IMG/VR virus record: IMGVR_UViG_3300043444_000400
Span: 7,061 to 71,060 of that record
DNA length: 64,000 nucleotides
Reading direction: 5' to 3' (one strand)
Source: a virus
The translations under genes and the position numbers were made by a program. The notes beneath the pieces are model-generated. The model made no database searches and had not been told where the DNA came from. It was given only the letters and a program-made list of their open reading frames with translations. Positions 917-63,587 of this stretch are shown piece after piece. Within the stretch, counting starts at the first letter, position 1, and each line of letters begins with the position of its first letter.

Positions 917-1094
917 GATTCCTTTCAAGTTATACACAATAGCTTTAGGTTCTTGTTGTAAAGGCGGAGGATGGAACAATAGCGCTTGGAACACAAGGTC
1001 TAAGTACATAAAAGAACAGGGGAATGGTCATAGTTCAAATCGTGGATTCCGCCTTATGTTAATTACGAAAGAAAATGAAAATAACAATCCTTAA
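885..1094 (+). CDS. 69-aa microprotein, CLec/FGE variable-region-like motif (unit F)
   Basis: ...KGGGWNNSAWNTRSKYIKEQGNGHSSNRGFRLMLITK; GAGGT SD. Confidence 0.7.
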   Translation: MVYIHVGRYRKIPFKLYTIALGSCCKGGGWNNSAWNTRSKYIKEQGNGHSSNRGFRLMLITKENENNNP

Positions 1095-1377
1095 GCATAT
1101 TGATATGATGTGTGAAAGAACAGCCCCTGGTGTAGGTTTAGAAATAGAATGGACTCACTTTTATCCAACTACTTTGAATGTAAGCCCTTATTTTAGAGAC
1201 CCTGATTTCAGACTAGAGATTTATGAAGATGATATGCCTTGGTATATCTTAAGAGATTATTATGGTCCTTATGTCATAAATATAAGTGCGGTTGAAGATC
1301 ATTTAGAAGAAGGTGACATAGAAATTTGTGATGCCCTTCGTGAATACCTAGTTAGATGGCAGAATGAGGATAACTGA
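1075..1377 (+). CDS. hypothetical protein
   Basis: ORF track, overlapping-gene packing. Confidence 0.65.
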   Translation: MKITILKHIDMMCERTAPGVGLEIEWTHFYPTTLNVSPYFRDPDFRLEIYEDDMPWYILRDYYGPYVINISAVEDHLEEGDIEICDALREYLVRWQNEDN

Positions 1378-2791: not shown

Positions 2792-3151
2792 ATGATAACT
2801 ATAACTTTTAAGTCTTTACAAGATGAATTCCCTAAACCAGGAGATGAAATAGCGTATATTACAAGTGAAGGGGGAATAACTAGTATAAGATTTTCTGAAG
2901 TCGTAATGTACTGGATGAAAGAAGAAGGGAATTGTATAGAGTATATAGATGAAGAGTGTGAAGGGTATACTCCGTTAACATTTCTTTCTGATGGAGAATG
3001 TCTAGACAATTACTTACTTGAGGGTGAGACTGATTTGTTCTATTGGACATATTTTAAGGAGTATTATGAAACAACGAAAGAAATATATGGAAAGGAACCT
3101 GAACCATATGATTATCTTAGAAGATTGCTATTTGACCCAATAGTAAAGTAA
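2792..3151 (+). CDS. hypothetical protein
   Basis: ORF track. Confidence 0.65.
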   Translation: MITITFKSLQDEFPKPGDEIAYITSEGGITSIRFSEVVMYWMKEEGNCIEYIDEECEGYTPLTFLSDGECLDNYLLEGETDLFYWTYFKEYYETTKEIYGKEPEPYDYLRRLLFDPIVK

Positions 3152-3188
3152 TATAAAGTTGTCCAGTAGTAAAGTAATATAAAGTTGT
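3141..3188 (+). repeat. 22-bp perfect direct repeat upstream of the tmRNA locus
   Basis: TAGTAAAGTAATATAAAGTTGT at 3141-3162 and 3167-3188; followed by inverted repeat TATAAGTA/TACTTATA (3193-3220). Confidence 0.85.
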
Positions 3189-3230
3189 TGGGTATAAGTA
3201 CACAGTCTTGTATACTTATATTTACGATAT

Positions 3231-3292
3231 GGTACTAAAAAGTATTAATGGAGTTAGCAAAGACAGCGGTTCAACTCCGCTCACCTCCACCA
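3231..3292 (+). ncRNA. ssrA: two-piece (permuted) tmRNA, acceptor piece
   Basis: GAC-A-GCGG-TTCAACT-CCGC-T-CACCTCC-A-CCA: T-arm plus 3' acceptor strand with encoded CCA; its 5' part (GGTAC, AGTATT, TTAGCAAA) pairs with the coding piece. 5' end approximate. Confidence 0.88.
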
Positions 3293-3385
3293 GGGGCAGT
3301 AGCTCAATTGGTAGAGCGAGAAGCTTATACCTTCTGTATGCACCAGATTAGTGCGCGGTTGTGGGTTCGAGTCCCTCCTGCCCTA
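3293..3385 (+). tRNA. trnI: tRNA-Ile(UAU) with long variable arm, forming the tmRNA intervening segment
   Basis: GGGGCAG/CTGCCCT acceptor, GCTC/GAGC D stem, AGAAG-CTTATAC-CTTCT anticodon arm (TAT 3326-3328), 25-nt V region, GTGGG-TTCGAGT-CCCTC T arm, discriminator A. Confidence 0.9.
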
Positions 3386-3389
3386 CCTT

Positions 3390-3600
3390 GGGGGTGTCCT
3401 GGTATCGATTTGTTAATGAAGTGAAATACTGTACCCGGTCTAGAGTCCAGGACCGACCCTATGTATATACTACATAGGTGAAGAAGGACAAAATCGTGTA
3501 AATGCGAATCAAATCAAACCTTTTGCTCGTAAGACCTCTCTTGCTGTAGCATAATCATTGAACTGGGGTAGCTCATAAGGGTTACCCTAGTTCTTCTTTT
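3390..3600 (+). ncRNA. ssrA: two-piece (permuted) tmRNA, coding piece
   Basis: 5' GGGGGTG-TCCTGGTATCGA pairs with CACCTCC giving G3.U70 (Ala identity); pk1-like pairings CGGTCT/GGACCG and GTCC/GGAC; tag frame after TAAAT; ends at terminator. Confidence 0.9.
3504..3554 (+). other. tmRNA proteolysis tag reading frame ANQIKPFARKTSLAVA*
   Basis: Resume codon GCG preceded by TAAAT; resembles cyanobacterial ANNIVxFARK...AA tags. Confidence 0.88.
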
Positions 3601-3601
3601 T
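3560..3601 (+). terminator. Rho-independent terminator ending the tmRNA transcript
   Basis: GAACTGGGGTAGCTC-ATAA-GGGTTACCCTAGTTC followed by TTCTTTTT. Confidence 0.85.
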
Positions 3602-3621
3602 GCTGTCATTTGGATTGTCTT

Positions 3622-3789
3622 ATGTTGGATCTTGCTTCGATTGGACAACTAGTTCGCCAACTATCTTTTGTTTATGCTGTATTTATGGCCTGTGACAGTA
3701 CCTATAAAAAGAATATTCATGCACAGATTTTTTTCTGTTCTATGGCCATAGTTATTCAACTACAACTTATTTTCGTTGGATTACGCTAA
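3622..3789 (+). CDS. small hydrophobic (membrane) protein, 55 aa
   Basis: Manual translation MLDLASIGQLVRQLSFVYAVFMAC...AIVIQLQLIFVGLR. Confidence 0.45.
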   Translation: MLDLASIGQLVRQLSFVYAVFMACDSTYKKNIHAQIFFCSMAIVIQLQLIFVGLR

Positions 3790-3932
3790 TGATGGACTTA
3801 TCTTTTTGGACTTATCTGGGTATAACTTGTTCTCTCTTTAATGCCTTAATTGACTTTGACCGTGAGAATTACTCGTGGTCTCTCTTCTGGGTTGTTTGGA
3901 CTATCTTGCTAGGAGTGAACAATTTGTATTAA
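3789..3932 (+). CDS. small hydrophobic (membrane) protein, 47 aa
   Basis: TAATG coupling; MMDLSFWTYLGITCSLFNAL...WSLFWVVWTILLGVNNLY. Confidence 0.45.
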   Translation: MMDLSFWTYLGITCSLFNALIDFDRENYSWSLFWVVWTILLGVNNLY

Positions 3933-4012
3933 AATGCTGTATAATTAACAGCAACACCTGTGAAAATCAGGTGTATATGCCCTGGTAGCTCAGTGGATAG
4001 AGCAATCGCCTT

Positions 4013-4657
4013 TGCAAAAACACCTAAGTAAGCTATAATTAACTTAGTTTATAAGGTGAACAAATGGAGCCTATTTGTTGGAAGGTTGAGAAGATTGTAA
4101 GTAAAGGTGACTATAACTATGCTGTGGTAAAAGGACACCCAAAAGCTAATAAGCTAGGGTATATTTTAGAACACAGAGTAGTTATGGAGAATCATCTTGG
4201 TAGACTTCTTAACTCTGATGAGGTTGTTCATCATATCAATCATGATAGAAAGGACAACAGGGTTGAAAACTTGGAAGTTATGACCGCAAAACAGCATCAA
4301 CTGCTACATGGAAAAGAGATAGGTAGGAAATACTGTCACTTAAAATGCCCTGAATGTGGTGTTGAATTTTGTAAAGAAATTAGAGATACTTTCTTACAAA
4401 AAGGGGGCAGGTTTACTACTTGTTCGGCAAAGTGTAGAGGAAAACTTTCAAGAAAAATCCAACTCGGAAGAGAAACTCAAATAGTGGAAGCCGCCATATC
4501 GGAGAACATCCTTGCTATTTTCAAAAGATACAAGGGCAACTCCGAGGTAACTGTCTTACAACAGGAACCGTAGAGACTATACGCGGCTCACCTGAAATGG
4601 TGAAGAAATAGTCCAGCCTACAACTCGAAAGAGGTCATAGTAATATGATGTGGGATG
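4013..4657 (+). mobile_element. group I intron carrying an HNH homing endonuclease
   Basis: Exon ends in U, intron ends in G; P3 GCCGC(4490)/GCGGC(4583), P4 TCGGAG/CTCCGA, P5 CCTTG/CAAGG, P7 GACTA(4575)/TAGTC(4609), P8 TCACC/GGTGA. Confidence 0.88.
4064..4573 (+). CDS. HNH homing endonuclease with C-terminal Zn finger
   Basis: EHRVVME...VVHHINHDRKDNRVENL HNH motif; CPEC...CSAKC. Confidence 0.9.
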   Translation: MEPICWKVEKIVSKGDYNYAVVKGHPKANKLGYILEHRVVMENHLGRLLNSDEVVHHINHDRKDNRVENLEVMTAKQHQLLHGKEIGRKYCHLKCPECGVEFCKEIRDTFLQKGGRFTTCSAKCRGKLSRKIQLGRETQIVEAAISENILAIFKRYKGNSEVTVLQQEP

Positions 4658-4715
4658 CTAAGCGATCGGTCGCAGGTTCGAGTCCTGCCCAGGGCGCTAA
4701 CTTTAGAGGTTAATA

Positions 4716-5039
4716 GTGATGGAAAAGATTAAGGTTGTAGATTACTATGACCATGAGCCTACTGCTTGGGATTCAGGTCTACGAGAAACCCCTATAGACC
4801 TCTATTTTGAGTTTGAGCCATATAGCGGTTTTTCTATAGTCAAAGGCTATAACTTTACTTGTGGGGAATATACTCTTACAGCTAAATGCCCCTATAGTGA
4901 CGAGACTTTTGACTTTGTTTATGAAGAATGGTGGGGAACATCTCTTCAAGAGTGGTTTGAGGATAGCGTAGATTCTTATCTAAATAAGAACAAAATGTCC
5001 CAAATGAAACTTAACTTACAAGGAGAAAATCATGACTAA
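4716..5039 (+). CDS. HicB-like domain protein (array member 1)
   Basis: PYSGFSI...FDFVY...SLQEWFEDSVDSYL, resembles the HicB N-terminal domain pattern. Confidence 0.5.
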   Translation: MMEKIKVVDYYDHEPTAWDSGLRETPIDLYFEFEPYSGFSIVKGYNFTCGEYTLTAKCPYSDETFDFVYEEWWGTSLQEWFEDSVDSYLNKNKMSQMKLNLQGENHD

Positions 5040-5655
5040 TCTGATTACTCTGTTTAAGAATTCTGAGAACGAGATTTCACATTTCAAGATTAACGGGGAC
5101 CAAGACTTTATTGAGGAGGTTCTTTTTGTTGTTGACTTTATTCAATATGAGAAATCAGAAGATGCCCTTACTTCAGGAAAGCCTCTTAGCTTTGATGTAA
5201 GTGGATGTTATGGCAATTACTACCTTCTTTTAGCTCTCTCCTCTATTACTCAGTATTTTGAATTTCAGATTGATGGAGTAACTAAACGAATTCCTTCTAC
5301 AGTTCTTCCTCCAGCTAAGGAAGTATTCGATAAATACCCTGATTATGAATATAAGAATTGGGGGAAAGATGACCTTGGGGTGGAGGAAATTCCTTGGCAA
5401 GATGTTATCCTTGCTAGCATTATTGAGGATTACATTCTAACTAATGAACCAATTGTTCTAGAGTATAAAGGTTTTACTTGTACTCTTACAAAAGACCCTG
5501 CGAACGACTGGAATTATACAGCAGTTGTAACTAATCAAGGTGTTGTTTCTTTTGAAGGTCAAGGTAATTTAACCTATCTTGAGACTCAATTTCCCGAATG
5601 TGTAGACTCAAAACTTCAAGGAAAGCGTATTTACACTATGTCCGTCTACTACTAA
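5032..5655 (+). CDS. protein with C-terminal HicB-like domain (member 2)
   Basis: LEYKGFTCTL...GVVSFEGQGNLTYLETQFPECVDSKL. Confidence 0.6.
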   Translation: MTNLITLFKNSENEISHFKINGDQDFIEEVLFVVDFIQYEKSEDALTSGKPLSFDVSGCYGNYYLLLALSSITQYFEFQIDGVTKRIPSTVLPPAKEVFDKYPDYEYKNWGKDDLGVEEIPWQDVILASIIEDYILTNEPIVLEYKGFTCTLTKDPANDWNYTAVVTNQGVVSFEGQGNLTYLETQFPECVDSKLQGKRIYTMSVYY

Positions 5656-5720
5656 ATTAGTTTTTTGTATTAGGGGTTCTTCATTGAGGAGAACCTCATT
5701 CATCAAAAAGGGGATTCACA

Positions 5721-6296
5721 ATGTCAAACTTCTTGTACATCAATAAAGATTTTGAGTGTTACGTTAAGGGTGATTCCACTTTTGTCTATGCCTTTATGAA
5801 AGCTGTTAAAGCTCAAGGCATAGCAGAGGTTGTGTTGAATGAAGAACAGCAAACCATATCCGCTAATTATTACCTCAATGCTCTTTATATCCTAGATATG
5901 ATAGCAACTATGAAGAAGCTATGTCCTGACTTCAAAGTTGTGTTTTGTAACGTCACAGACATTATTATGTCTAAGGAATTTCCAGATAAAGAATATCTGG
6001 ACTTCATTGAATTTAATCATGACATAATTCTGTCCTATATTGTTCATGCCAATACGAAGCGAGGAGCTAAAGCATTACGCTTTTGTTTCAACAATGACAT
6101 GATAGAAGATGTGCTGACATTTAGTTATAAGGATTTTCAGGTTTCTTCTGTTGAGTATAGCGAGATTTATGACAGTTTTGCAGGACTTGCAAGTCATAAA
6201 GATGATGTAACTAAAGAAGTTGCCTTTGTTGGTAAAGATGTAGAAGACCTAAAACAAGCTTTCCATGGTGCTGTAGATACGTATACGCAGACATAA
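5721..6296 (+). CDS. protein with C-terminal HicB-like domain (member 3)
   Basis: FSYKDFQVSSVEYSEIYDSFAG...VAFVGKDVEDLKQAFHGAVDTY; N-terminus paralogous to 5032..5655. Confidence 0.7.
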   Translation: MSNFLYINKDFECYVKGDSTFVYAFMKAVKAQGIAEVVLNEEQQTISANYYLNALYILDMIATMKKLCPDFKVVFCNVTDIIMSKEFPDKEYLDFIEFNHDIILSYIVHANTKRGAKALRFCFNNDMIEDVLTFSYKDFQVSSVEYSEIYDSFAGLASHKDDVTKEVAFVGKDVEDLKQAFHGAVDTYTQT

Positions 6297-6330
6297 GAGG
6301 TATAACAGTACAAAAATAAGAGGTATAACA

Positions 6331-6774
6331 GTGTTTGATTACATTCAGCCTTATGAAGGATACTCTTTCATCTGGAGTTATGTATGGCCTAGTCTTACAC
6401 AGAGAGGGCTTTCTACAGAAGTAAAAATACGAATCTGGTTTCCTTCTACTTCTTATCAACAGTTCTTTTCAACAGTAGACTATGTAAAAGCACATAATCT
6501 TAATCAATGGACTTTTAATTCCACCGTGGACTCATATATCAAGAGAATGGAACAAGAAGAACAAGGAGATTTTACTCTTATTAGCCAAGATGTAGGGATG
6601 GTTGATTTATTTACCCCTGTTATTACCCAGAAACACAATGAGGTATATCAAGGTACAGCTAAAGCAAATGACCTACAAGTTGATTTCTATGGACGTTCAG
6701 CGCTAGAATTAAAAGCTAGTTTGTACATGGAAGTACAAAGTCTATATCGTCGTATTCAAGGTTATGAGGACTAA
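6331..6774 (+). CDS. HicB-like domain protein, possibly two domains (member 4)
   Basis: QPYEGYSF...FNSTVDSYI and YQGTAKANDLQVDFYGRSALELKASL. Confidence 0.55.
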   Translation: MFDYIQPYEGYSFIWSYVWPSLTQRGLSTEVKIRIWFPSTSYQQFFSTVDYVKAHNLNQWTFNSTVDSYIKRMEQEEQGDFTLISQDVGMVDLFTPVITQKHNEVYQGTAKANDLQVDFYGRSALELKASLYMEVQSLYRRIQGYED

Positions 6775-6779
6775 GACGT

Positions 6780-6989
6780 ATGTTTGAATTAGAAGACTAT
6801 AAAGGATTCCATGTTGAGTGGATTGAACCTAATGATGATGGTTCTTTTACAGGGAAAGCCACAAAAGATAATTATCAAGTTACTTTCGTTGGTACAGATA
6901 AAGATTATCTGGAACAAGCTTTTCATGAATCAGTAGAAGATTTGTTTGAGTTTGTTGATGGGTTAGAGCAAGAAGGATTAGATGTATGA
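6780..6989 (+). CDS. stand-alone HicB-like domain (member 5)
   Basis: EDYKGFHVEWIEPNDDGSFTGKATKDNYQVTFVGTDKDYLEQAFHESVEDL. Confidence 0.7.
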   Translation: MFELEDYKGFHVEWIEPNDDGSFTGKATKDNYQVTFVGTDKDYLEQAFHESVEDLFEFVDGLEQEGLDV

Positions 6990-7767: not shown

Positions 7768-8125
7768 TTACACTCTTAGTATTGAGCTAACAACGAAAGA
7801 AAACTCTGTTAATCCTTCTGTAGCGGAAGTAGGAAAACAGATTCTTGAAGCTGTTTCTCTAACCACAAAGACTAAACCAATTCCATACCACTTAGACATT
7901 AAGAATTGGTACACCCCTTATGCCAGTGATTTCATTGTCCTTAATTCTGTAACCAAGGATATGGTGATTGAGCTAGAGAAATATTTATCTCACCTAGGGA
8001 TGAATAATAAAGCTCAAGTTTTCCATAATGAAGAAGACCACACTGTACGAATTAACTTTGCCTCCTCTTTGTTCAGTCGAGATAACTTTACCCATTACCT
8101 ACAATACATTCAAAAACATGTCTAA
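7742..8125 (+). CDS. hypothetical protein
   Basis: ORF track; start moved to MKITF after a GGAG SD. Confidence 0.6.
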   Translation: MKITFPLFNYTLSIELTTKENSVNPSVAEVGKQILEAVSLTTKTKPIPYHLDIKNWYTPYASDFIVLNSVTKDMVIELEKYLSHLGMNNKAQVFHNEEDHTVRINFASSLFSRDNFTHYLQYIQKHV

Positions 8126-8447: not shown

Positions 8448-8760
8448 TCCAGGGTTATATGGGACTTGGAAAGAAGTTCACCACGATGTCACACAGGATT
8501 TTTATCTTTCGTGTGACTTCCCTGTTCTAGGGGTTAGTTTGAATGGCTCTGAGTTTCTTGCTCCTAATGTAGAACATGGAGTAATTAAGACTCTTGAGAA
8601 CGGTAAGACTTTGAACCTAAAGATTTCCCCTTGCCATAACATCTACTATCTGCATACGGTGGTAGCTCGTACCCTTGAAGGTACATATGGTATTCATGTA
8701 AAAAACGAGACAAAGGAGTACAGTGGTAACCAAAGGAGTGAACTCGCACTGTTGGTTTGA
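8419..8760 (+). CDS. hypothetical protein
   Basis: ORF track; likely start MILPL. Confidence 0.55.
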   Translation: MILPLRDWTNPGLYGTWKEVHHDVTQDFYLSCDFPVLGVSLNGSEFLAPNVEHGVIKTLENGKTLNLKISPCHNIYYLHTVVARTLEGTYGIHVKNETKEYSGNQRSELALLV

Positions 8761-9453: not shown

Positions 9454-10041
9454 ATGCCTGTAATTCTTTCTTCCACAACCAAGAGTAGTACATATGACCT
9501 TAGTGAAATTCCTAAGGACTGTATACCCTTAGCACTTAAGGACCAAGAGGTTGCTAAGTTACTTCTTGATGCCTTCTACCAACAATGGTATAAGTTTGGT
9601 AGTCCACCATTTATTAAGGAGAAAACTCTTACACAGAACAAAATGGAGTGGGTATTTGTAGAACCTTACGGATATCTACATTTACCTAAAACCATTGGGC
9701 GTTACTTCCTACTTAAGGATAATACTTCAGCTAGTCTACCTTTACCTTGTCGTAATCTATTAAGCCGACATGATATGGGTACTGTTGACCTTAGTAAAGT
9801 AGAGGTTAAGAACTTCTTTCCTGAAGCACATATAAAACCTTTTGGGCAGGAATGTTCCACAATCTGTCTATATAGCCCTTCCTCCGTTGTTTCTCTTTTA
9901 GTTCAAACCCGAAGTTCTCGTCTAGAGAAAATTCTTCTAGGGTCTACTTTTCTTTCGTTTTTACACAGTCAAGGCTTTGAAGTACCTCTTCAAGGCTATT
10001 TTTGGCGCAATCTTAAATCAATGGAGTCCTCAAATGACTAA
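9454..10041 (+). CDS. hypothetical protein upstream of the Ubl cassette
   Basis: ORF track. Confidence 0.7.
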   Translation: MPVILSSTTKSSTYDLSEIPKDCIPLALKDQEVAKLLLDAFYQQWYKFGSPPFIKEKTLTQNKMEWVFVEPYGYLHLPKTIGRYFLLKDNTSASLPLPCRNLLSRHDMGTVDLSKVEVKNFFPEAHIKPFGQECSTICLYSPSSVVSLLVQTRSSRLEKILLGSTFLSFLHSQGFEVPLQGYFWRNLKSMESSND

Positions 10042-10636
10042 TCTCATGCCGATTTCTGAATGGCTTCCTTCTTTTAATAATGAAGGTCAAGAATTTATTG
10101 CTGACCAAATTGCTACATTCTTTATGGACCATGAAGAGATTCATAAGGAGTTGATTGCTGTTCGAGGCCGATATAACAGTCTAACGAAAGAAGACCTTGT
10201 TAACTGGGTTGAACACGAAGGTAATCTGTATAAGACTGCCTCTGATATGTCTTGGTTCATCATCCATCCAAACTCCTATCTTTGGACTAATGGGCATTGG
10301 AGTGAACGATATAACGCTACGGTTGGTCCACTTCGTACTAAGTGGTCTAAATCAGTCGGTGACTTAACTCTTTTGGGTTGCATGGAGATTACTCGTGATT
10401 GGCCTGAAGCTCAGTTGATCATGACTAAGATGGGAAATGCAAACCGTCTGTACAGTATGAATAAGGCAACCTTCTACTCTCCTCTGTTTTTGCTCTGTGC
10501 ATATCTGACAGGTTCTCAAAGTCAGAACTTTATGCACAATCACTTTCGTTCGTGGCTCATTAGCAAAGGGTATGATGTAAATTTTCATCCCTACAATGTT
10601 AATGAAATCCATGACTTTCTTTATGGGGCGGAGTAG
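10034..10636 (+). CDS. hypothetical protein upstream of the Ubl cassette
   Basis: ORF track; start MTNLM after GGAG SD. Confidence 0.7.
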   Translation: MTNLMPISEWLPSFNNEGQEFIADQIATFFMDHEEIHKELIAVRGRYNSLTKEDLVNWVEHEGNLYKTASDMSWFIIHPNSYLWTNGHWSERYNATVGPLRTKWSKSVGDLTLLGCMEITRDWPEAQLIMTKMGNANRLYSMNKATFYSPLFLLCAYLTGSQSQNFMHNHFRSWLISKGYDVNFHPYNVNEIHDFLYGAE

Positions 10637-11491: not shown

Positions 11492-11565
11492 TTCCTAGAT
11501 TTTCTTTCGTGACATTTCTCTTACGACTACACTTCCTAGATTGTTACAAACAAGCTTCCTAGATT
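11492..11565 (+). repeat. three copies of TTCCTAGATT
   Basis: Exact copies at 11492, 11533 and 11556 in the Ubl-JAB intergenic region. Confidence 0.8.
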
Positions 11566-13306: not shown

Positions 13307-13327
13307 GAACCTATATCCTTATACAAT

Positions 13328-14350: not shown

Positions 14351-14383
14351 TAGACTCTCTAGAATATACAAGGAGAAATCACC

Positions 14384-52572: not shown

Positions 52573-52751
52573 GAGGTGTAAGTAATGCTTTACATTAATG
52601 ATATTGATAAGAAACTTTCCTTTCGTTGTAACACTAATCGTCAAAGTGTAGCAACATCACAAGCAGAAGAGTTAGATATTATAAACTTTACAATTACATC
52701 GACCCCAGACTATAAAGTTTTTGTACTAGAGGATTAAATAGAGGATTATAT

Positions 52752-53508: not shown

Positions 53509-54009
53509 ATGAAGATTAAAAATACTGTGCTTAGTCTTAGTTTGATTGGTCTATCAAGTTTTCTAGTGTCTTGTGAGGATGATCGATATGAGAACTATGA
53601 TAGTACACCATCGGGAAGTACAGAATTTACTCCCCCTGTAAATAAAGCTGAGTTTACTATTGAAGTTGCTGTAGTTGGAAATGAAGGTCAGATTGTAAGT
53701 GCTGTAGGACATCCTTTTGTAGCTGTACCTACAACTGAGGGTTCTTGTCCTTCTGATATTACAACTCTAGATGCTTCTATGGCAATTCCTCTATCTCTTA
53801 AGTCTAACAATACAGCAACTTTTAGCTCAGGTACAGCTAACGATAATAATTATTGTGTAACCAATACACATACAGTTAGTGGAGGCCAATGGATTCCTAA
53901 TGACGCTCAAATCAATGGGTGTTCTTATTATTGGACCACTATGTTAACCTTCCAAGGCTCTAGCGTTGTTCTAACGAAAGAGGATGCCTCTGTAGAGATT
54001 TGTTTGTAA
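53509..54009 (+). CDS. putative lipoprotein
   Basis: Signal peptide with lipobox LVSC. Confidence 0.7.
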   Translation: MKIKNTVLSLSLIGLSSFLVSCEDDRYENYDSTPSGSTEFTPPVNKAEFTIEVAVVGNEGQIVSAVGHPFVAVPTTEGSCPSDITTLDASMAIPLSLKSNNTATFSSGTANDNNYCVTNTHTVSGGQWIPNDAQINGCSYYWTTMLTFQGSSVVLTKEDASVEICL

Positions 54010-55479: not shown

Positions 55480-57090
55480 GTGAATACTGAACAGAGAAAC
55501 CTACTACGAAGCCTGATTGAACCTTTAATTAAAAATACCAATGATAATTTAGTTATAAATGCTACGGTAGGATGTAAAGCTAATAATTCCTTTCGTTATC
55601 AAGGTTTATCAGTTACAGCTTTATGTGACATATATCCAGGAAATAAAGTATGGGTATTTAGAGATACCAAGAATGGTACGTACTATGGGGTGAGAGAAGA
55701 GTTTAATCCCGTACTTAACGAAAGAACATTTACAAGGAAGTATATTGCTCCAGAGCCTGTACGACGAAACATAGTGCCTTCTGTGGGATTGCTGTATCGG
55801 TATGTGCCTAGTATCAGACGGGATGAGATGGTGACCCCTACATTCAACCCGTACTATGAACAAAACCCTGAACTCCTAAATGATATTGAAATTTATCTAC
55901 TAATTGATGGCAAATACACACTGGCCACGTCAATACCTTTGGAATGGAGAGACTTGGGGACGCTAGAGTTTGTTGGGGGAGTTAGTATTGGTAGCATCTT
56001 CCCCGTTGGTCCTCCCCCTACTGGCTCAGCAACATTCAATCAAACGGGTAATTCAGTCTCGATATCTACGAGCGCATCTATGGGCACTGATACGACAGGG
56101 TGGTTTATAGAGGCCACTTACTCAGCAACGTTCAGCGGGCTAGCACTTAGGGGGTCTGTTAGTGCATCACGGTCTTTTGCAATATCGTCCGAGAATAATG
56201 GAGGGTCTGCTATTGAACTGATTCCTTTTGAAAGTCAAACTGACGTAGGTGCTTTCTTTGATGGAGTAAACACGATCGGGGGGTCATCATTCGATTTTGC
56301 GTTTACAGGGCAAAGTTCAGATACCGCGCCTTATGTTGACGAATTCAGGATCCACGCTCTGTCTAGTCTCGATTCAGCCGCAACCCTAATTATTGATGCC
56401 AGTGCTAGCGCCAGTATCAGCCTGTCCGATGTTGAAATATTGTGTGATCGTCAATGGGGTCGGTCATGGTCATACATAGACTCTCAGGGGTGGATTACGT
56501 GGGTAATTGTTTATGAAACTCCATCAGGGTCTGCTGGATACCCCACAGAGGAAGTCAGAACAGATGGCCCTAGCTACCTAGAGGAGCGAATCTACGGATT
56601 TTACGGCAAGAAGAACATCCAACGCCGTAAAATATATGCTCGTCGCTACTACGACGATGGAACCTCACAGTATGCCGAAGGTCAAGCCTTAGAGGATTTG
56701 GTCTTCAGCCCTGATCCTGTCACCCTTGAGGACTTCCGGGATAATCCCAAGAGCGTAAACCTGGAATGGGGGGCAACGGTTACCCCTCCGGTGTCCCCTG
56801 ATGAGTGCCTGAACGATTATCAGACTGACCGATTACTCAACTATCTACCAACCCGACGCAAAGCCTACGACCCCCCCACGTTCGGCATAATCAATGACAG
56901 CATCATCTCTGGGGATCCCCTCACTATCGAAGGCTATCGGGTCTCCAGTACTAACCCTACCTGTGACCTAGTGCCAGACCGTGAGTACCAGCAACGGATT
57001 CAAGCTTGGGCTAATTCAAAATTTGGGAGTGATCCAGAATCTGTAGATAATCCACCTGAGGTGTTAACTTTCTCTTACTATTCTCCGTAA
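55480..57090 (+). CDS. putative virion structural / receptor-binding protein (mosaic GC)
   Basis: S/T/G-rich beta-type middle; located in the tail locus. Confidence 0.55.
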   Translation: MNTEQRNLLRSLIEPLIKNTNDNLVINATVGCKANNSFRYQGLSVTALCDIYPGNKVWVFRDTKNGTYYGVREEFNPVLNERTFTRKYIAPEPVRRNIVPSVGLLYRYVPSIRRDEMVTPTFNPYYEQNPELLNDIEIYLLIDGKYTLATSIPLEWRDLGTLEFVGGVSIGSIFPVGPPPTGSATFNQTGNSVSISTSASMGTDTTGWFIEATYSATFSGLALRGSVSASRSFAISSENNGGSAIELIPFESQTDVGAFFDGVNTIGGSSFDFAFTGQSSDTAPYVDEFRIHALSSLDSAATLIIDASASASISLSDVEILCDRQWGRSWSYIDSQGWITWVIVYETPSGSAGYPTEEVRTDGPSYLEERIYGFYGKKNIQRRKIYARRYYDDGTSQYAEGQALEDLVFSPDPVTLEDFRDNPKSVNLEWGATVTPPVSPDECLNDYQTDRLLNYLPTRRKAYDPPTFGIINDSIISGDPLTIEGYRVSSTNPTCDLVPDREYQQRIQAWANSKFGSDPESVDNPPEVLTFSYYSP

Positions 57091-57100
57091 ACCAGAATAC

Positions 57101-57412
57101 CTAGTTAGCTAAATTACTAAGTAGATTATTTTTAGTAGATTCAGTAAGTATTCCTGTAACTGTATATAGATTGATTAGGTTGGTTTTAACTTCATCATTT
57201 CTTTCATTAAACACAGAGAGAAATACACTATAGAGTGTGTAGTTATCTTTAGGTTGACAACCTCCTAATACACTATCTAACCAAGTTGTATCTACTGCAA
57301 TATTTGTATACTGTGAGCTACACCACGAAAGAAAAGAGGATGTTTCTCCTAACATATTACTTTTATCTTGTGGTGTAAGAATATGAAAAGCTTCTTTTGC
57401 ATTTAAGGTCAT
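57101..57412 (-). CDS. hypothetical protein
   Basis: ORF track. Confidence 0.6.
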   Translation of the reverse strand: MTLNAKEAFHILTPQDKSNMLGETSSFLSWCSSQYTNIAVDTTWLDSVLGGCQPKDNYTLYSVFLSVFNERNDEVKTNLINLYTVTGILTESTKNNLLSNLAN

Positions 57413-57417
57413 AGTAA

Positions 57418-58212
57418 TTAAATCTGTACCAAATGAATGTTAAAACTTGAGTTAGCAATAGCGGCTAGGCTACCAGAGATTGCGGATACTTTGATTCGGG
57501 TCCGTGGCTTGAACAGTAAAGGTGAAATTTCTCTGCTATGAGTAGCATTGTCTAGCACGATTTGGTCTTGAAACAGGTACACCGGGGGCACCCCATCGAG
57601 CAAATCTCTCGAATCACGTTCACAGGTAGCTCGCAATCGAAAGTCTTGGCTGTGGTTTGTGGAGACTCCAGCGCCCCATCTATCGACTACGGCATAGTAG
57701 CCCTCAGGCACGGTGAACAAGCTTGATAGACTTTGGTTTCCGCCTGCTGTAATACGCTCATGGATTGCCCCACCCCCTGCAACTCGAAGGTCAATATTCC
57801 CCGCAGCCTTGCCCCCACTTCCTACGGTTTTACTGTGCAGCCAGTTGATTGCCCGACAATTGGCCATAGCTGCAATAGCTACGGGTGTTGTTCCGTTGAG
57901 CGTAACCGTTGCCGTTTGTGACAGCCAGGAATTATCCAGATAATGCACCTCTACGGTCCTTGTTCCCGTTCCCGCAGCCGCATCATTAGCAGAACTGCTC
58001 ACGACTTCCCAGGATTGTGCTCCTGTGGGTTCAGGAATGCTTGGCGTAGTTAGGTATTCTGCAATATCTTCAAGCTCAGTAGTGGTAGAAAATGCGGAGC
58101 GTCTTGCAGGGATGTTGAAGCTTTGGAAAATCTTCCCATCTAGTTGGCCCTCATAAAGCGCCCTCCAAGAATCAAAGCCATTATAAGTATTAACTCGTCG
58201 CAATAAAGCCAT
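57418..58212 (-). CDS. putative tail-associated structural protein
   Basis: VVSSSANDAAAGTGTRTV...LNGTTPV motif, recalled from phage virion proteins. Confidence 0.6.
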   Translation of the reverse strand: MALLRRVNTYNGFDSWRALYEGQLDGKIFQSFNIPARRSAFSTTTELEDIAEYLTTPSIPEPTGAQSWEVVSSSANDAAAGTGTRTVEVHYLDNSWLSQTATVTLNGTTPVAIAAMANCRAINWLHSKTVGSGGKAAGNIDLRVAGGGAIHERITAGGNQSLSSLFTVPEGYYAVVDRWGAGVSTNHSQDFRLRATCERDSRDLLDGVPPVYLFQDQIVLDNATHSREISPLLFKPRTRIKVSAISGSLAAIANSSFNIHLVQI

Positions 58213-58223
58213 AAATAAATCTC

Positions 58224-58544
58224 CTATGAAATGAACCAGTTAGAAACACCATCGGCCTCAACAATAACAGCTTCATAGGGCTGAAGCGTAAAGGAGGTTT
58301 CCCCATCAATTAGGTCTGATCCCGATCTAACAACAGTAACTGTATTGGCAGCGTTGTCAATCCGTTTTAATGTATGCAGGATGGTCGCAGATGATGCAGC
58401 AAGAGGAAGGGTAAGAACTATATTCCCCCCAGTTGCATTCAGCCTGTAACGATAGGAGTTAGTGCTAGAGAGCGTGGTGCTTGTCGAGATGGTTGCGACA
58501 GGGAAAGAGTCGATTCGAGTGTAAAGAGAAGTTAGGGTTGCCAT
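58224..58544 (-). CDS. small tail-fibre-module protein
   Basis: LTLP...RSGSDLIDG...DGVSNW module also present in 59277..63587. Confidence 0.65.
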   Translation of the reverse strand: MATLTSLYTRIDSFPVATISTSTTLSSTNSYRYRLNATGGNIVLTLPLAASSATILHTLKRIDNAANTVTVVRSGSDLIDGETSFTLQPYEAVIVEADGVSNWFIS

Positions 58545-58547
58545 GGG

Positions 58548-59273
58548 TTAGGGTCCAGTGGGGAATGGTGCTGTGGGGACAATGGAAACATTGCGGGCAA
58601 CGCCCTTGGTAATACGGACTGGGCCGATATACCCTTGAAAATAGTAAAGAGAATTTGCACCTCCCAAAATCAGGGGGAGTGTGCTGTTGTAGGGTGTGCC
58701 TGAATATGTGCCCGTGCCTATCAGGTACTGTGTTGTTGCTCCAGAGACCCCAATCCAGCATCGCCACGAATTCCCAGATCGGGTAAATGCAATATATACC
58801 CATGTACTCAGTGCTAGGGAGGGAGCACCGGTCGCAAAGTTGTTGATGAACCAGCTAGAACCAGTGGCGGATGCTGCAATTCCTAGCCCACCACTGGCGA
58901 CAAAAGGTAATACTGGGGCATACGTGTTTGCCACTGTCTGACCCAGCAGGTAGACAACGCTAGGGTTCGCTGAGGGATAAAGCCAAAATTCCGCAGTAAA
59001 ATCCCCAGAAAGATTAAATGCTTCCGAGTCGGGGGACTGGATTGAATCTCCTGTCCCATCCAGCGCGAGGCTACTCCCACCCGCAAAAGGACTCTGCGCC
59101 GTACTAATTACAGCGTCCCCATTCCAGGTTATGGGAAGGGCTAGTGGGCCTTGCTCTGTAGCGGGCTTGGAGCCATTTGTGCCCTGGAAGTTTTGCAGAA
59201 AAACCACGTTGGCCCAAAAAGGATCTCCTGTTTGTCTAAAGGCTTTTCTTCGATGTAATAAATATGGATTCAT
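58548..59273 (-). CDS. LamG / concanavalin A-like lectin domain tail protein
   Basis: GDPFWANVV, SLALDGTGD, DFTAEFW, W.YIAFTRSG, GYIGPVRITKGVAR. Confidence 0.8.
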   Translation of the reverse strand: MNPYLLHRRKAFRQTGDPFWANVVFLQNFQGTNGSKPATEQGPLALPITWNGDAVISTAQSPFAGGSSLALDGTGDSIQSPDSEAFNLSGDFTAEFWLYPSANPSVVYLLGQTVANTYAPVLPFVASGGLGIAASATGSSWFINNFATGAPSLALSTWVYIAFTRSGNSWRCWIGVSGATTQYLIGTGTYSGTPYNSTLPLILGGANSLYYFQGYIGPVRITKGVARNVSIVPTAPFPTGP

Positions 59274-59276
59274 CTT

Positions 59277-62200
59277 TTACCACCCTGTCGGCTCTGTCGT
59301 GAGTTCTAGGTATTGGATTTTGACCCCAATGAGCCGTGCATCCACTGCCAAGGTATCAGCTATATCTCGACTTACTTCAAAATAAATCCAGTCTTGTAAT
59401 GCCGGTGAACCCGCAACCGTCACGGATGCTGTGGCAGAAGTTATGTGCATTTCGTTGACTGCAATCAAGGTGTCAGTTACGGATTGAGCCGTACCATAAG
59501 CTGTGTCTAGCAGGTCGTCATCTGACAGGCTCCCTCCCTTGATAGCCCATGTTACGGTTCCGCTGCCACTCGTTGCGGTCCAATAGAAACGAGCCTTGAT
59601 TGTACCCCGGTCCCAAGAGTCAGGCATTGAAATTTGAAAACAGGCACCCTCGGAAGTCGTAGCGTCAAAATCTAGGGTGTCATAAGCAATGTCATTCGTC
59701 GTGGTCTCTACTGTAGCAATAGCGGCCCCGCTTGTTGCTCTAGGGGTCATGGCTCCCGCACCAATCCAAATCTCTCTGTATACTCCCGTTCTGGTCAATG
59801 GCCCAGTATTGGATATGGTAAGAGCATCTGTAGCGGCATTGGTTGTGAGAGAAATCCCACTTCCTGCGACGAAAGTAACCGTATCGTTTGCAGAATCAGC
59901 CACGATATTGGACTGCCCTGATACAGCAATTGTGTTGAACGAGGTCAGAGATGCGCTTCCACCTCCCGCACTGTAGTCTGTGAAAGATTCAGCGGCAACA
60001 ATAGCCCAGTTCGTGCCATAGAAAACCAGCCAAACACAGGCATTGTCGCTATCTAAAACTAGGGAAGATTGTCCTGCAATGGTTTGAACACCGTTGGGAT
60101 TGATTGTGAGTGGGGCAGCGGTAAAGTTGGGAAGTTGGTCAACAATGGCAATTTGGTCCCCGTTAGCCCCCGCTGGTAGATTTAATGTGGTTGTCCCTGC
60201 AATTTGGTACAGATTGCCTTTGACCCCCAAAACTGTAGGGGCCGTGACATAGACCGGTGTTAGTCCACCTCCACCAGGAATATTAATTGTGGCTGTGTTA
60301 CCCGAAACACTAACTGAAGCACCTTCCCCTGTGATGTTATAAATGGTTGCCTGTCCCGCTGTACCTTGGTTTACACCCTCATCCTGTAGTTGAACAAGTC
60401 TCTGCCCTCTTCCCGTGGTATACCAGTTACCTTGACCATCAGAATGAACTATAACTGATTCACCTTGATAGAAGACAACTGAAGTACTTCCATCAATCAA
60501 GTCTGAGCCAGAACGAGCTAAGGTCAGGGTGTTGTTACTGTTCCCCGGTATGACCTTGAACAGGTAGTGCAAGGAATCATCATAGTTTGGGCCGCTTCCC
60601 GTATTTGGCAAAGTCGCAGTAACAGATCCGCCTGAGACATTCACGAAAAATCTTTCGGAATTTAATCCTGGTGAGAAGTTGGCGTTTTTGGTTGTATATA
60701 GAGGGGCTGTGCTAGGTAGTATTTGAACACTCACAGCTTCTCCAGGGACAAATTCACCACTTCCTCCTGAAAGTAGACTAATCCCCCATGTTCTGTAAGA
60801 GCCTGAATCCACAGCACTAAAGATTCGGGCGTATGTGAACGCACCTGAGTCTTGTCCCGTAAGCTTAACGTAACCCCCTTGTGTTACAGAGCTTAAGACA
60901 TATCCAACAAAAACCCCGTTGCCATCAGTCTCACTAATTCTGATAGTGTCTCCAAATCCGCCCCCTGCACTTCCAAAGTTAAGTGCATCAAGACTAGACA
61001 ATTTAATCTCACCGGAAGCGGGTGTTGCATTACTGGTCAATGTGTATGTCATGTCAGACCCACCTCCACCAGAACCTCCACCAGAAACCTCAACTAATGC
61101 CCCCAAGGTTGTACCTGTGGCCCGGTAAAGTTTATTATTATCAGTTGCTATATAGAGCAATCCCGTATGTGTTGGTGTAACTAACGTAGGGTCTCCCGTG
61201 AAAGTTCGATAGCTACCGATGGGGGATAGGTTGCCTGGACCTGTGCCCGTAGAGCGATAAAGCAAGTTGGGAGTGGTGTCTGTGGATACAAAAAGTTGTT
61301 CCGTAGCGGTGGGAGTAACAATAGAAGGACTTCCCGTAAATGTATTATATGCTCTGATGTCAACTATGGTGTCTGGACTAGCATCAGTAGCGTTAACAGC
61401 CGGTCCAACAAAATTGATATTACTACGTTGAGGTAAAGGGGTTCCTTCATTCTCTACAGTTATTGCTGGAGGAGCATTAATCTCTATACTTTCGTTAGCC
61501 CCTGAATTAAGTGTAGTAAGTGTTATTCCTGTACCCGCTACAAGCTTATTACTAAGAAATCCAGGGGTTGTATCATTGGTACTGTTTTTTACCTTATAAC
61601 TTACGTTACTAAAATTAGTCCATTGTGCTGCTCCAACCGCAGGAGTCACCCCCGTACTCGTATTTGTTGCAATCCACCACATACCATTATGGGATACAAC
61701 ATCACCAGCACCATAAGCTGTACCTGAATCCCAAGCACCTTCATAACGTAAGGAATTAGCAATTACTTCTGTTAGAGTTGTAGAGATTTCTTGAATACAG
61801 CCATCATTAGGAGAATGACTAATGTTTGTAATACTTGTACCTGTGTATACGAAACAATAGCAGACTTCGTAAGTGTAATTCTCAGCAGGAATTGTGTTTG
61901 TTATAGAAGATATTACAGGGGTTACGGGGCTATAGAGACCATAGGGAGTATTTGTGGGAATCGCCGTATCCGTAGTCCCATCTTCATAAGTCAGCGTATA
62001 TATGTCAGAGGCTAAGGACGGGGTAACTCCTTGGTCAAAATAACGAAAGGAAATGGAAGAATCACCTAAATTAGTTCTCTTTATATAAAACCTAATACTC
62101 TCTGCAAAGAATGTTCCTTTAGTAGAACTCGCAATAACATCAGAATAATTACTTCTAATTTGTGTAGGGTATGTGACGGTAATGTTTAGAGTAGAATTTG

Positions 62201-63587
62201 CATCCCCATTACCTACAGAACTTAATGTACTGTATGCACTTTGTCCACTTAATGTAGAAACTAATGCACGTTGAGCTAGATTAGCTGTAAGAGATAAAGA
62301 CGTAAATACAGAACCATTCCCATCTATACTAATAATTTGGTCTTGTGTATTACTTAACAACCCTCCTACCGTAGTAGATGGAACGTTTTCAAATAAAAAC
62401 TGCTTAACAATCCCGCTACCGCTATCAACAATTACTTCTAAACCTTCATTAGGATATACACGACGAAGATTAGGGTCATCTCCTCCTAGAATTGCATCTC
62501 CTGTAAATGCACCTACACCAACTTGTACTCCTCTATTGCTATAAATAAAGGGAATTATACTTATGGTGCTATTGTAAGCGGGAATTAGTCCATTACGAGC
62601 AAGGTCTGAGTTAGTAAAGTTAGCATAAATCTTTAATTGATAAGCCTCATTAGTACCTAGAGTCTTAGGAATTGATAATGAACTACTTTTACCACCTGTA
62701 TAACTCTGTAATACCCCTACATAAGGAAGTAAAGTTACACCATCATCTTCATAAATATCAAGTTCAGCAGTAGTTTTTTCTACATAACCTTCAAACACTA
62801 GGGTTAATAAGTCAGTAAAACTAGCACTAACATCTACACCTTGTAAATCTATGGTTACTCCTACACGTTCACCTTCAGCAACATCTACAGTTGTGTCATT
62901 AAATAACCATACACGTCTAAACTTACTATCACTACCATCTACACCGTAATAATTCTGTATTAGATATTGTGCATTTAAGTCTTCAATAGCTACGTCACAA
63001 CCAAGTACAGATGAGGTGGTGTCATTAACATAAATATCAAAAGTGTTGGTTTCATAAAAAGCTAACCAATTACCACTAGGAGATGCAGCAATAACATCAT
63101 CACCATTAGGAAGAGCTACGGAAGTACTACTGTATCTGTATAGATTTCCTTTCGTTGTGTACTCTAGAACAAACCCATTTGGCATCCCTGTAGGAAGAGT
63201 AGCCGTAGAAGTTTCTATATCAAGATGAGAGTCACTACTAAGGGTTATAGAGTAGGGAAGTGTGATGGGGGCTTGAGTTAAAGTTGTTGCATCAATTTCA
63301 ATTAGTAAACTCGCATTACTAGCATCATTGATAGTGTTTACCGTAACAGCAAATCTTTCCCAATTCTCACCAGAACGAAAACAATCTGTAGGAAATACAA
63401 GTTCAATACCTTGTCCAGCAGCTACAGTACAAGAAGAAACTGTACTCGGTAAGTTATATCCAATACAGTTACGAGCTTGTAACCAGAAGTAATAAGTACC
63501 AGCTACAGCACTTGTAAAACTACCAGATACAACATTAACTGTAATGGGACATATTTGTTCTCTTCCTGAAGCGAATTGAGACCTCAT
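59277..63587 (-). CDS. long tail fibre / receptor-binding protein
   Basis: 1436 aa, T/S/G-rich, YEGAWDSGTAYGAGDVV carbohydrate-binding-like motif, AGTGITL linkers, internal repeats. Confidence 0.8.
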   Translation of the reverse strand: MRSQFASGREQICPITVNVVSGSFTSAVAGTYYFWLQARNCIGYNLPSTVSSCTVAAGQGIELVFPTDCFRSGENWERFAVTVNTINDASNASLLIEIDATTLTQAPITLPYSITLSSDSHLDIETSTATLPTGMPNGFVLEYTTKGNLYRYSSTSVALPNGDDVIAASPSGNWLAFYETNTFDIYVNDTTSSVLGCDVAIEDLNAQYLIQNYYGVDGSDSKFRRVWLFNDTTVDVAEGERVGVTIDLQGVDVSASFTDLLTLVFEGYVEKTTAELDIYEDDGVTLLPYVGVLQSYTGGKSSSLSIPKTLGTNEAYQLKIYANFTNSDLARNGLIPAYNSTISIIPFIYSNRGVQVGVGAFTGDAILGGDDPNLRRVYPNEGLEVIVDSGSGIVKQFLFENVPSTTVGGLLSNTQDQIISIDGNGSVFTSLSLTANLAQRALVSTLSGQSAYSTLSSVGNGDANSTLNITVTYPTQIRSNYSDVIASSTKGTFFAESIRFYIKRTNLGDSSISFRYFDQGVTPSLASDIYTLTYEDGTTDTAIPTNTPYGLYSPVTPVISSITNTIPAENYTYEVCYCFVYTGTSITNISHSPNDGCIQEISTTLTEVIANSLRYEGAWDSGTAYGAGDVVSHNGMWWIATNTSTGVTPAVGAAQWTNFSNVSYKVKNSTNDTTPGFLSNKLVAGTGITLTTLNSGANESIEINAPPAITVENEGTPLPQRSNINFVGPAVNATDASPDTIVDIRAYNTFTGSPSIVTPTATEQLFVSTDTTPNLLYRSTGTGPGNLSPIGSYRTFTGDPTLVTPTHTGLLYIATDNNKLYRATGTTLGALVEVSGGGSGGGGSDMTYTLTSNATPASGEIKLSSLDALNFGSAGGGFGDTIRISETDGNGVFVGYVLSSVTQGGYVKLTGQDSGAFTYARIFSAVDSGSYRTWGISLLSGGSGEFVPGEAVSVQILPSTAPLYTTKNANFSPGLNSERFFVNVSGGSVTATLPNTGSGPNYDDSLHYLFKVIPGNSNNTLTLARSGSDLIDGSTSVVFYQGESVIVHSDGQGNWYTTGRGQRLVQLQDEGVNQGTAGQATIYNITGEGASVSVSGNTATINIPGGGGLTPVYVTAPTVLGVKGNLYQIAGTTTLNLPAGANGDQIAIVDQLPNFTAAPLTINPNGVQTIAGQSSLVLDSDNACVWLVFYGTNWAIVAAESFTDYSAGGGSASLTSFNTIAVSGQSNIVADSANDTVTFVAGSGISLTTNAATDALTISNTGPLTRTGVYREIWIGAGAMTPRATSGAAIATVETTTNDIAYDTLDFDATTSEGACFQISMPDSWDRGTIKARFYWTATSGSGTVTWAIKGGSLSDDDLLDTAYGTAQSVTDTLIAVNEMHITSATASVTVAGSPALQDWIYFEVSRDIADTLAVDARLIGVKIQYLELTTEPTGW

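Follow-up and report, generated by a model that had tools for sequence, protein, structure and literature searches.

The window analysed here consists of 64,000 nucleotides, bases 7061-71060 of the 71,060-bp IMG/VR virus record IMGVR_UViG_3300043444_000400 (G000), which has a GC content of 0.37 and carries nearly all of its genes on the + strand. All coordinates below are window positions unless the record is named. The subject of this report is the heptamer ACGAAAG, which is a real, non-random, strand-specific signal acting at the DNA level. Exact matches to ACGAAAG (+ strand) or CTTTCGT (- strand) were found at 74 places in the window, 36 and 38 on the two strands, respectively, and at 83 places in the whole record (39 + and 44 -; 1.17 per kb). 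Dinucleotide shuffles of the window gave an expectation of 5.70 ± 2.15 copies and a largest value of 11, and none of the 100 shuffles reached 74; the word is enriched 14-fold. An earlier note on this DNA, in which 69 copies (33 and 36) had been counted by eye, was right that the motif is strongly enriched on both strands, and all 18 coordinates that it gave as examples are among the 74 copies. Its GC estimate of approximately 35% was slightly below the measured value, and the approximately eight copies that it expected by chance compare to the measured 5.7. A codon-aware null, a check that the note had proposed, did not remove the excess: synonymous-codon shuffles within genes gave 19.4 ± 3.4 copies in the record (maximum 30 in 300 shuffles) and whole-codon shuffles gave 13.6 ± 3.0, compared to the 83 observed. 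In a codon-aware scan over all 7-mers, ACGAAAG ranked first with a z score of 14.2, and the next unrelated word reached 5.9.

The form of the word was equally well defined. All 21 one-mismatch variants of ACGAAAG occurred near their expected numbers, so that the enrichment is confined to the exact heptamer. The hexamer CGAAAG was found 89 times in the record and was preceded by A in 83 of these cases, and TCGAAAG was present three times (6.0 expected). The extended consensus is A-ACGAAAG-d-AAA (AACGAAAGAAA), with seven fixed bases and approximately 11 informative ones; among the 83 copies, A was counted 52 times at position -1, 50 times at +7, 64 times at +8, 62 times at +9 and 57 times at +10. 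The flank is directional, the A-rich tail being found on the 3' side only, in sense and antisense copies alike, so that the extended consensus proposed in the earlier note was borne out in each group separately. Outside positions -3 to +10 the flanks carry no information, so the copies do not belong to a repeat element. Copies lie inside coding sequences in either orientation, as the same note had stated (36 sense and 42 antisense), and all six frame and orientation classes are used (sense 23, 9 and 4; antisense 15, 11 and 16), the remaining five copies being intergenic or at gene edges. There was no link to gene boundaries (median distance 116 compared to 132, p = 0.25). A GNRA-type hairpin, C(GAAA)G, was considered and rejected when inspection by eye found the flanks not to be complementary. 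A literature search by titles and abstracts turned up no report of an ACGAAAG motif or of evenly spaced, strand-specific words in phage genomes; the two papers that matched the motif as a word do not concern phages to judge by their titles.

On the + strand, the copies lie at 1065-1071, 3074-3080, 7793-7799, 10184-10190, 12348-12354, 14540-14546, 15988-15994, 17751-17757, 18320-18326, 19195-19201, 20659-20665, 21316-21322, 22485-22491, 23576-23582, 26102-26108, 29287-29293, 31302-31308, 32902-32908, 35769-35775, 37006-37012, 38613-38619, 40624-40630, 42374-42380, 43565-43571, 44442-44448, 45088-45094, 47847-47853, 48791-48797, 50564-50570, 51133-51139, 52296-52302, 53974-53980, 55718-55724, 57325-57331, 59869-59875 and 62043-62049. 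On the - strand, they lie at 1894-1900, 6883-6889, 8506-8512, 9952-9958, 10543-10549, 11504-11510, 12862-12868, 12889-12895, 14022-14028, 14661-14667, 17087-17093, 18903-18909, 19818-19824, 20743-20749, 22251-22257, 22754-22760, 24998-25004, 26493-26499, 27588-27594, 30094-30100, 31935-31941, 33171-33177, 35113-35119, 37867-37873, 40202-40208, 41238-41244, 41898-41904, 43791-43797, 44307-44313, 46034-46040, 47153-47159, 48361-48367, 50027-50033, 51566-51572, 52620-52626, 55590-55596, 61489-61495 and 63149-63155.

These positions are more regular than random placement allows. When both strands were pooled, the coefficient of variation (CV) of the gaps was 0.70 compared to 0.98 for random placement (p = 2e-4), the observed 0.70 being the value of two independent strands. 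Taken strand by strand, the CV was 0.48 on the + strand (reached in none of 20,000 simulations) and 0.67 on the - strand (p = 0.003), with mean same-strand gaps of 1775 nt and 1626 nt, respectively. Short gaps were nearly absent, since same-strand gaps below 500 nt numbered zero on the + strand (9.2 expected) and two on the - strand (11.5 expected), the 27 nt that separate the copies at 12862 and 12889 being the only very short one. Gaps above 3 kb were also fewer than expected, with three on the + strand (7.1 expected) and two on the - strand (6.4 expected). The distance to the nearest copy on the opposite strand had a median of 514 nt compared to 438 nt under a shift null (p = 0.16), and opposite-strand pairs lie as close together as 84-135 nt, the closest being formed by the copies at 20659 and 20743. 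These findings show that copies on the same strand are constrained relative to each other, with an exclusion zone of approximately 500 nt, and that the opposite strands are mutually unconstrained. Regularity that is confined to the same strand is the signature of single-strand reading or of a machine that moves in one direction, and not of a duplex binder that is blind to orientation.

The orientation of the word alternates at 64 of 82 steps compared to 41.3 ± 4.5 for shuffled labels, and none of 20,000 label shuffles reached 64. When the copies of one strand were shifted circularly, alternation still occurred at 57.6 ± 3.1 steps (p = 0.039 for the observed 64), and the alternation is therefore mostly a by-product of the regularity on each strand. 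Coordination between the strands, in the form of paired inverted sites, was considered as the primary feature and rejected: gaps from + to - and from - to + were alike (Mann-Whitney p = 0.55), and the shift null gave a p value of only 0.039. The longest gap is a copy-free stretch of 3.8 kb at 3081-6882, a region of tRNA, HNH-intron and small open reading frames (ORFs), and only three copies (those at 57325, 59869 and 61489) fall in the GC-rich segment at 56-62 kb; both thin stretches may be younger DNA that has yet to acquire the word. Fairly even spacing, frequent alternation of orientation and thinning at 3.1-6.8 kb and in the GC-rich segment had all been described in the earlier note and were recovered here, and its proposal of a DNA-level signal under selection is supported by the enrichment, the codon-aware nulls, the spacing and the 7-mer scan.

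Five genomes were compared, namely G000, a relative termed REL (two overlapping IMG/VR contigs with 99.65% identity in an overlap of 9.8 kb, counted as one merged sequence of 34.9 kb), G001 (a complete 121-kb IMG/VR genome with 34% PolA identity) and the Pseudanabaena phages Pam2 (ON014754.1) and PA-SR01 (MT234670.1). No further relative was found by megablast against phages or by a search with PolA alone against viral contigs, and alignments of PolA, helicase and primase searched in viral contigs returned the same four contigs only. A metagenome scan gave two remote matches, which were left out of the comparison. REL is colinear with record positions 15-50 kb, with protein identities of 25-67% (PolA 67%) and a nucleotide identity of 58% in aligned codons. 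The word enriched in REL is S-TCGAAAG-A, as TCGAAAG was present 26 times compared to 4.3 expected and ACGAAAG six times compared to 3.6 expected. Its spacing was regular on the + strand (CV 0.54, p = 0.036), with a CV of 0.71 on the - strand (p = 0.17). Conservation of the sites among relatives, by which the earlier note had proposed to judge selection, was not found. Only two of the 28 G000 copies that could be mapped onto REL coincide with NCGAAAG there, the copy at 21316 being the only one that is still ACGAAAG at the orthologous place and the copy at 38613 being TCGAAAG; conversely, two of the 23 NCGAAAG copies of REL map onto a G000 copy. This lack of positional conservation does not refute selection, because REL keeps a similar density of the sister word TCGAAAG. 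From these sequence comparisons, selection appears to act on density and spacing rather than on position, with sites turning over between lineages.

In the more distant relatives, the enriched words were different. G001 is without a dominant 7-mer, and the foremost of its 9- to 11-mers were ACGAAAGAA (18 copies compared to 1.9 expected) and TACGAAAGAAA (nine compared to 0.19). In Pam2 and PA-SR01 there was no enrichment of CGAAAG, and the top word was RCAGAAAA followed by a purine tail, with 100 and 102 copies, respectively, compared to 42 in synonymous shuffles. These copies were divided nearly equally between the strands (52 and 48 in Pam2; 53 and 49 in PA-SR01) and were found in sense and antisense; no mention of RCAGAAAA turned up in the literature search of titles and abstracts. 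What the words have in common is a single C with a run of purines after it. The five genomes, a small sample of lineages, gave three or four types of word (ACGAAAG, TCGAAAG, TACGAAAGAAA and RCAGAAAA), and a homologous primase is present in all five. Neither CRTAGAA... nor GTAAGAAAA was enriched in any of the five. As a separate observation, G001 contains an unrelated 11-mer, GCATATTCCCA, at several places (eight copies compared to 0.03 expected), and neighbouring top 11-mers suggest longer shared flanks; this 11-mer could be a promoter-like or repeat element.

A replication module made up of exonuclease, primase, helicase and PolA is common to all five genomes, with the primase beside the helicase. 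In the window, it begins with the exonuclease gene (16528-17469, +; phrog_298, E 4e-21), followed by the gene of a 289-aa primase (18276-19145, +) that contains a Cys4 zinc ribbon (CPVC...CxxxxC) and a TOPRIM domain (EGEKT, PDxD) and is the proposed reader of the word. There is a 14-nt overlap between the primase stop and the replicative helicase gene (19132-20784, +; AAA_25, E 5e-24), and a family A DNA polymerase with a 3'-5' exonuclease domain is encoded at 21028-23235 (+). Among 60 homologues of the primase, residues C25, P26, C28, E182, G183, E184, D230 and D232 were invariant, and C48 and C53 were kept in at least 90%. The family comprised 952 representatives at E <= 1e-3, most of them stand-alone proteins of 270-320 aa and some fused to long proteins. 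The AlphaFold2 model of the primase had a pLDDT of 93.8 and a pTM of 0.76. Its best folds in the PDB, found with Foldseek at probabilities of 0.95-1.0, were DnaG catalytic cores, the zinc-binding domain (ZBD) and RNA polymerase domain (RPD) of Aquifex primase, T7 gp4 and Twinkle. TM-scores reached only 0.3-0.4, which is what a flexible linkage between two domains would give. By its predicted fold and motifs, the 289-aa protein is a ZBD and TOPRIM primase whose gene is coupled to that of the helicase.

A Sak4-like annealing protein is also encoded (phrog_124, E 2.7e-20), and much of the proteome of the record is without a family match. No terminase or major capsid gene was recognised among the ORFs of the record that were scanned. 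Pam2 (142.9 kb) and PA-SR01 (137.0 kb) were the best isolate matches for the portal, primase and helicase, and Nodularia phages were the best isolate matches for PolA. The record is probably about half of a cyanophage-like genome of approximately 130-140 kb, because an identical PolA is located on a contig of 136,124 bp and CheckV assigned 20% completeness to a relative of 26.5 kb.

Taken with its spacing and with the gene arrangement, the word is best read as marking preferred start sites of the phage's own primase of the DnaG/T7-gp4 type, with an all-purine primer, a reading to which we give close to, though not quite, an even chance. We infer the primase as the reader, the strand that serves as template and the point at which the primer begins. 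The word would be read on single-stranded DNA by the primase working with the adjacent helicase. The lagging-strand template would be the pyrimidine-rich strand, 5'-TTThCTTTCG(T)T-3', on which the word takes the form 5'-TTTCTTTCGTT-3'. Recognition would be centred on the triplet 5'-TCG-3', in which the template G, opposite the word's only C, would be the cryptic nucleotide, and the primer would consist of purines throughout, GAAAG(A)AAA. Among short hybrids, the most stable are those of purine-rich RNA with pyrimidine-rich DNA. One or two adjoining template bases on the 3' side (A/T, specific to the lineage) would be read by the zinc-binding domain, and the variable letters 5' of C (A, T or R) would fall in this 3' flank of the template. 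In Pam2, the triplet would be 5'-CTG-3' and the primer AGAAAA.... Since chance would hardly ever produce so long a word (about 6 copies in 71 kb), selection would have sown it through coding sequence on each strand at the Okazaki-typical interval of about 1.6-1.8 kb. A wider proposal, held somewhat more tentatively, is that a clade of large freshwater cyanophages that includes Pam2 and PA-SR01 has a primase with an unusually long template code of 7-11 bases (a single C and then purines), that each lineage rewrote its entire genome, protein-coding genes included, to carry this code every 1.5-3 kb per strand, and that word and primase co-evolve (ACGAAAG, TCGAAAG, RCAGAAAA).

The primase reading draws on several features of known enzymes. 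The T7 primase site is 5'-GTC-3', extended to 5'-(G/T)2GTC-3', and that of E. coli DnaG is 5'-CTG-3', synthesis by DnaG starting at the central base of the triplet with the 3' base cryptic (PMC12839067). The same report, a 2026 T7 study on primase site selection that was the closest published work found, states that T7 Okazaki fragments measure 1-6 kb, that about 26 of 177 pentamer sites are selected through a 10-nt flank, and that binding depends on the 3' flank of the template, which the zinc-binding domain presumably recognises (PMC12839067). AtTwinkle, a T7-type primase, is described as using the site 5'-(G/C)GGA-3' with the cryptic dinucleotide 5'-GA-3' (PMC5737085). Features of ACGAAAG that match primase sites are its action per strand and its same-strand gaps of 1775 and 1626 nt, within the T7 Okazaki range.

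Several points weigh against this assignment. The word lacks the trinucleotide character of known sites, having instead seven fixed bases with single-mismatch variants at background, and is filed here, again at slightly less than an even chance, as a primase-start-like signal of unusual length and a candidate member of the class. To our knowledge, no primase needs seven or more fixed bases. In T7, taken as control, the priming pentamers were without a comparable footprint: TGGTC was found 79 times on the top strand compared to 42 expected, GGGTC had a CV of 0.74 (p = 0.035), and the others were at chance; this control neither supports nor refutes the primase reading. G001 carries only 30-32 copies of its word in 121 kb, in both orientations inside genes and without regular spacing. 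There was likewise no regular spacing of RCAGAAAA in Pam2 (CV 0.92 and 0.97), and in PA-SR01 one strand was regular (CV 0.70, p = 0.006) and the other was not. If the word were obligatory for priming, G001, Pam2 and PA-SR01 would be under-served. Equal use of the two strands would require forks that move both ways along the whole genome, as is assumed here. The start of the primer had to be placed inside the word, because a primer from the word's first letter would begin with U in REL. Finally, because the record is probably about half of the genome, another reader could be encoded in the other half.

A different machine that reads one strand is a helicase-nuclease, either host RecBCD or AddAB or a phage enzyme, which would enter at a DNA end and switch from degradation to recombination at the word, so that evenly spaced copies in both orientations would protect and recombine a genome whose ends lie anywhere. 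Such a Chi-like role would account for a signal that is directional, strand-specific, regular on each strand and balanced between strands, and the density of one copy per approximately 1.7 kb per strand is near that of Chi in phages LLS (1 per 1.86 kb) and P1 (1 per 1.90 kb) (PMC12315714); a word specific to the lineage could reflect different hosts. The expected host-wide excess was not seen, however, as ACGAAAG reached at most 0.32 per kb in 201 Cyanobacteriota genomes compared to 1.17 in the phage, with the reservation that the host may lie outside this sample. In most of these genomes the word was rarer than its reversed control, the best ratio being 2.7-fold in one genome. RecC (PF04257) was present in 12 of 101 sampled Cyanobacteriota, and ACGAAAG was not enriched in those 12. 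In the same 201 genomes, GCAGAAAA was 3-6 times as frequent as its reversed control in many, a result from which no conclusion is drawn since the control contains CpG and is a poor match. A search of genome contigs with the D12 methyltransferase as host bait gave 64 loci in very mixed taxa at no more than 36% identity and thus no host clue. Moreover, the Chi-rich phages are described as being without a recombination module of their own, and the Chi sites of LLS as lying 20 of 23 in one orientation with half clustered at one end (PMC12315714), whereas this phage encodes a Sak4-like protein and an exonuclease and its copies are divided 39 to 44 and evenly spaced. The Chi-like reading is weakened by these findings and is considered unlikely. 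Strand-specific action would be shared by programmed interruptions such as those of T5, phiKMV-like and tf-like phages. A phage nickase would cut at the word or next to it, on whichever strand has it, and recombination or strand-displacement synthesis could begin from the resulting 3'-OH ends. In being exact and asymmetric and in having a short flank, the word resembles the tf consensus 5'-TACT/RTGMC-3' (PMC3517423), and at least one putative HNH-type ORF (4064-4573) was listed in the earlier note. The localized-nick motifs described in that publication are on one strand only, with 4-14 per genome (PMC3517423), compared to 83 copies on both strands (39 and 44) here; opposite-strand copies 84-135 nt apart would leave a fragile duplex if all were nicked; and no nickase was identified beside the replication module. 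Programmed nicking is therefore regarded as quite improbable.

Readers of the duplex fit the spacing less well. The copies could be bound by a phage protein that organises or packages the genome or controls transcription, or they could be substrates of a DNA-modifying enzyme such as one of the D12 methyltransferases, for which the exactness and high enrichment of the word, the presence of an A on one strand only, the two D12-class enzymes encoded in the window and the large share of the proteome without a family match may all be cited. An orientation-blind binder predicts regularity of the pooled copies, and not the same-strand exclusion with free opposite-strand distances that was observed, and the label shuffling mentioned above reached the observed alternation in 0 of 20,000 trials. 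A modification target gives no reason for 14-fold enrichment or for even spacing, and words of the type targeted by restriction-modification systems are avoided in the record (GATC 37 compared to 229 expected; TTCGAA 0 compared to 13.4) while ACGAAAG is enriched. We give this group of explanations a low probability. A role at the RNA level is unlikely in view of the nearly equal numbers of sense and antisense copies (36 and 42). The word might also be a functionless by-product of mutation or repair, either through a bias that turns near-cognates into the word or as a dispersed repeat. A very-short-patch-like repair bias has been proposed for the highly iterated palindromes of cyanobacteria; short iterated words are a familiar feature of cyanobacteria and of their phages, and the positions of ACGAAAG are not conserved. 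Such a bias should deplete the one-mismatch neighbours, all 21 of which were near or above expectation, and it would give neither the even spacing on each strand nor the 500-nt same-strand exclusion. The absence of flank information beyond -3 to +10 argues against parts of a repeat element, and HIP1 (GCGATCGC) had 0 copies in the record, so that a by-product is most improbable. Among the five candidates put forward in the earlier note, the strand-specific ones are thus favoured, primase starts in the first place and Chi-like sites in the second, and an orientation-blind binding or packaging protein and a methyltransferase target are disfavoured.

Other features of the source DNA were observed along the way. 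Ten public runs contained this DNA, all of them freshwater or sediment metagenomes with no RNA data set among those listed, and contigs from four public runs differed from window positions 12001-32000 at 1,139 places. In a related strain from one freshwater run, a contig joins 26121 to 27162 with seven other letters between, a junction that removes almost exactly the AAA-ATPase ORF at 26136-27155, and another contig skips 23276-23568. The ribonucleotide reductase (RNR) ORF at 35139-38756 encodes 1205 aa compared to 863 aa and 888 aa for the orthologues in REL and G001, respectively; three stretches of it match the RNR profile, and an intein or some other insertion may be present. Two adjacent D12-class adenine methyltransferases are encoded at 46386-47228 and 47237-47929 (E 5e-38 and 3e-15, respectively), and despite these N6-adenine enzymes GATC was approximately sixfold below expectation and TTCGAA was absent, which looks like restriction avoidance combined with self-methylation. 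The segment at 56000-62000 has a GC content of 0.45-0.49 compared to 0.32-0.39 elsewhere, and its minus-strand genes include one for a Laminin_G_3 protein and one for a protein of 1436 aa that shares its N-terminal 600 aa with G001. This segment may be a recently exchanged host-recognition module.

How primases choose the start points of Okazaki fragments is described as still open (PMC12839067). If the primase reading is true, the phage would be a natural case in which an exact word in the genome specifies where priming starts, and its priming code would be far more specific than that known for any primase. Moreover, a replication enzyme would impose on coding sequence a genome-wide constraint that affects all reading frames (83 words in 71 kb) and evolves by turnover of sites and by shifts of the word between lineages. 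The question could then be addressed directly with short oligonucleotides and a single small enzyme, and two relatives, Pam2 and PA-SR01, are in culture. Under the wider proposal of a long template code, the priming of lagging strands would be hard-wired and restricted to phage DNA, a mark of self and non-self in replication. If the primase reading is wrong, a word that is 14-fold enriched and even on each strand, without a known reader, is still an unexplained signal.

Among known systems, the DNA uptake sequences of Neisseriaceae and Pasteurellaceae occur about once per kb, in both orientations, inside genes and more evenly than chance, and ACGAAAG resembles them in density, orientation, location within genes and spacing. 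Uptake sequences belong to a bacterial genome and its competence machinery, whereas ACGAAAG appears to be a property of a phage lineage; the word changes between related phages, and the 201 cyanobacterial genomes sampled showed no enrichment of it. Chi (E. coli GCTGGTGG; phages LLS and P1) is similarly a short asymmetric word and, as described for these phages, their most frequent oligomer at approximately one per 1.9 kb (PMC12315714). Chi, however, belongs to the host and is enriched there, in contrast to the lack of a host-wide excess of ACGAAAG in the 201 cyanobacterial genomes, and the Chi-rich phages are reported to lack the Rec module (PMC12315714) that this phage has. The interruptions of T5-like, phiKMV-like and tf/LUZ24-like phages share with ACGAAAG an exact, asymmetric, phage-specific consensus inside genes, the purpose of which is not known; according to the same description they are on one strand with 4-14 per genome (PMC3517423), compared to 83 copies on both strands here, which are known from sequence alone. 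The likeness to the sites of DnaG and T7 gp4 primases lies in a ZBD and TOPRIM primase beside a helicase, a strand-specific signal, a directional flank and spacing in the Okazaki range. The T7 enzyme likewise picks a small subset of sites (approximately 26) by flanking sequence (PMC12839067), and the word of Pam2 and PA-SR01, when read as template, ends in the 5'-CTG-3' of E. coli DnaG. Known primase sites consist of three bases with soft flanks, which turn up at random once in a few hundred bases without marking the genome strongly, as in the T7 control, whereas the putative priming site of this phage has seven fixed and approximately 11 informative bases, is enriched 14-fold and is evenly spaced on each strand.

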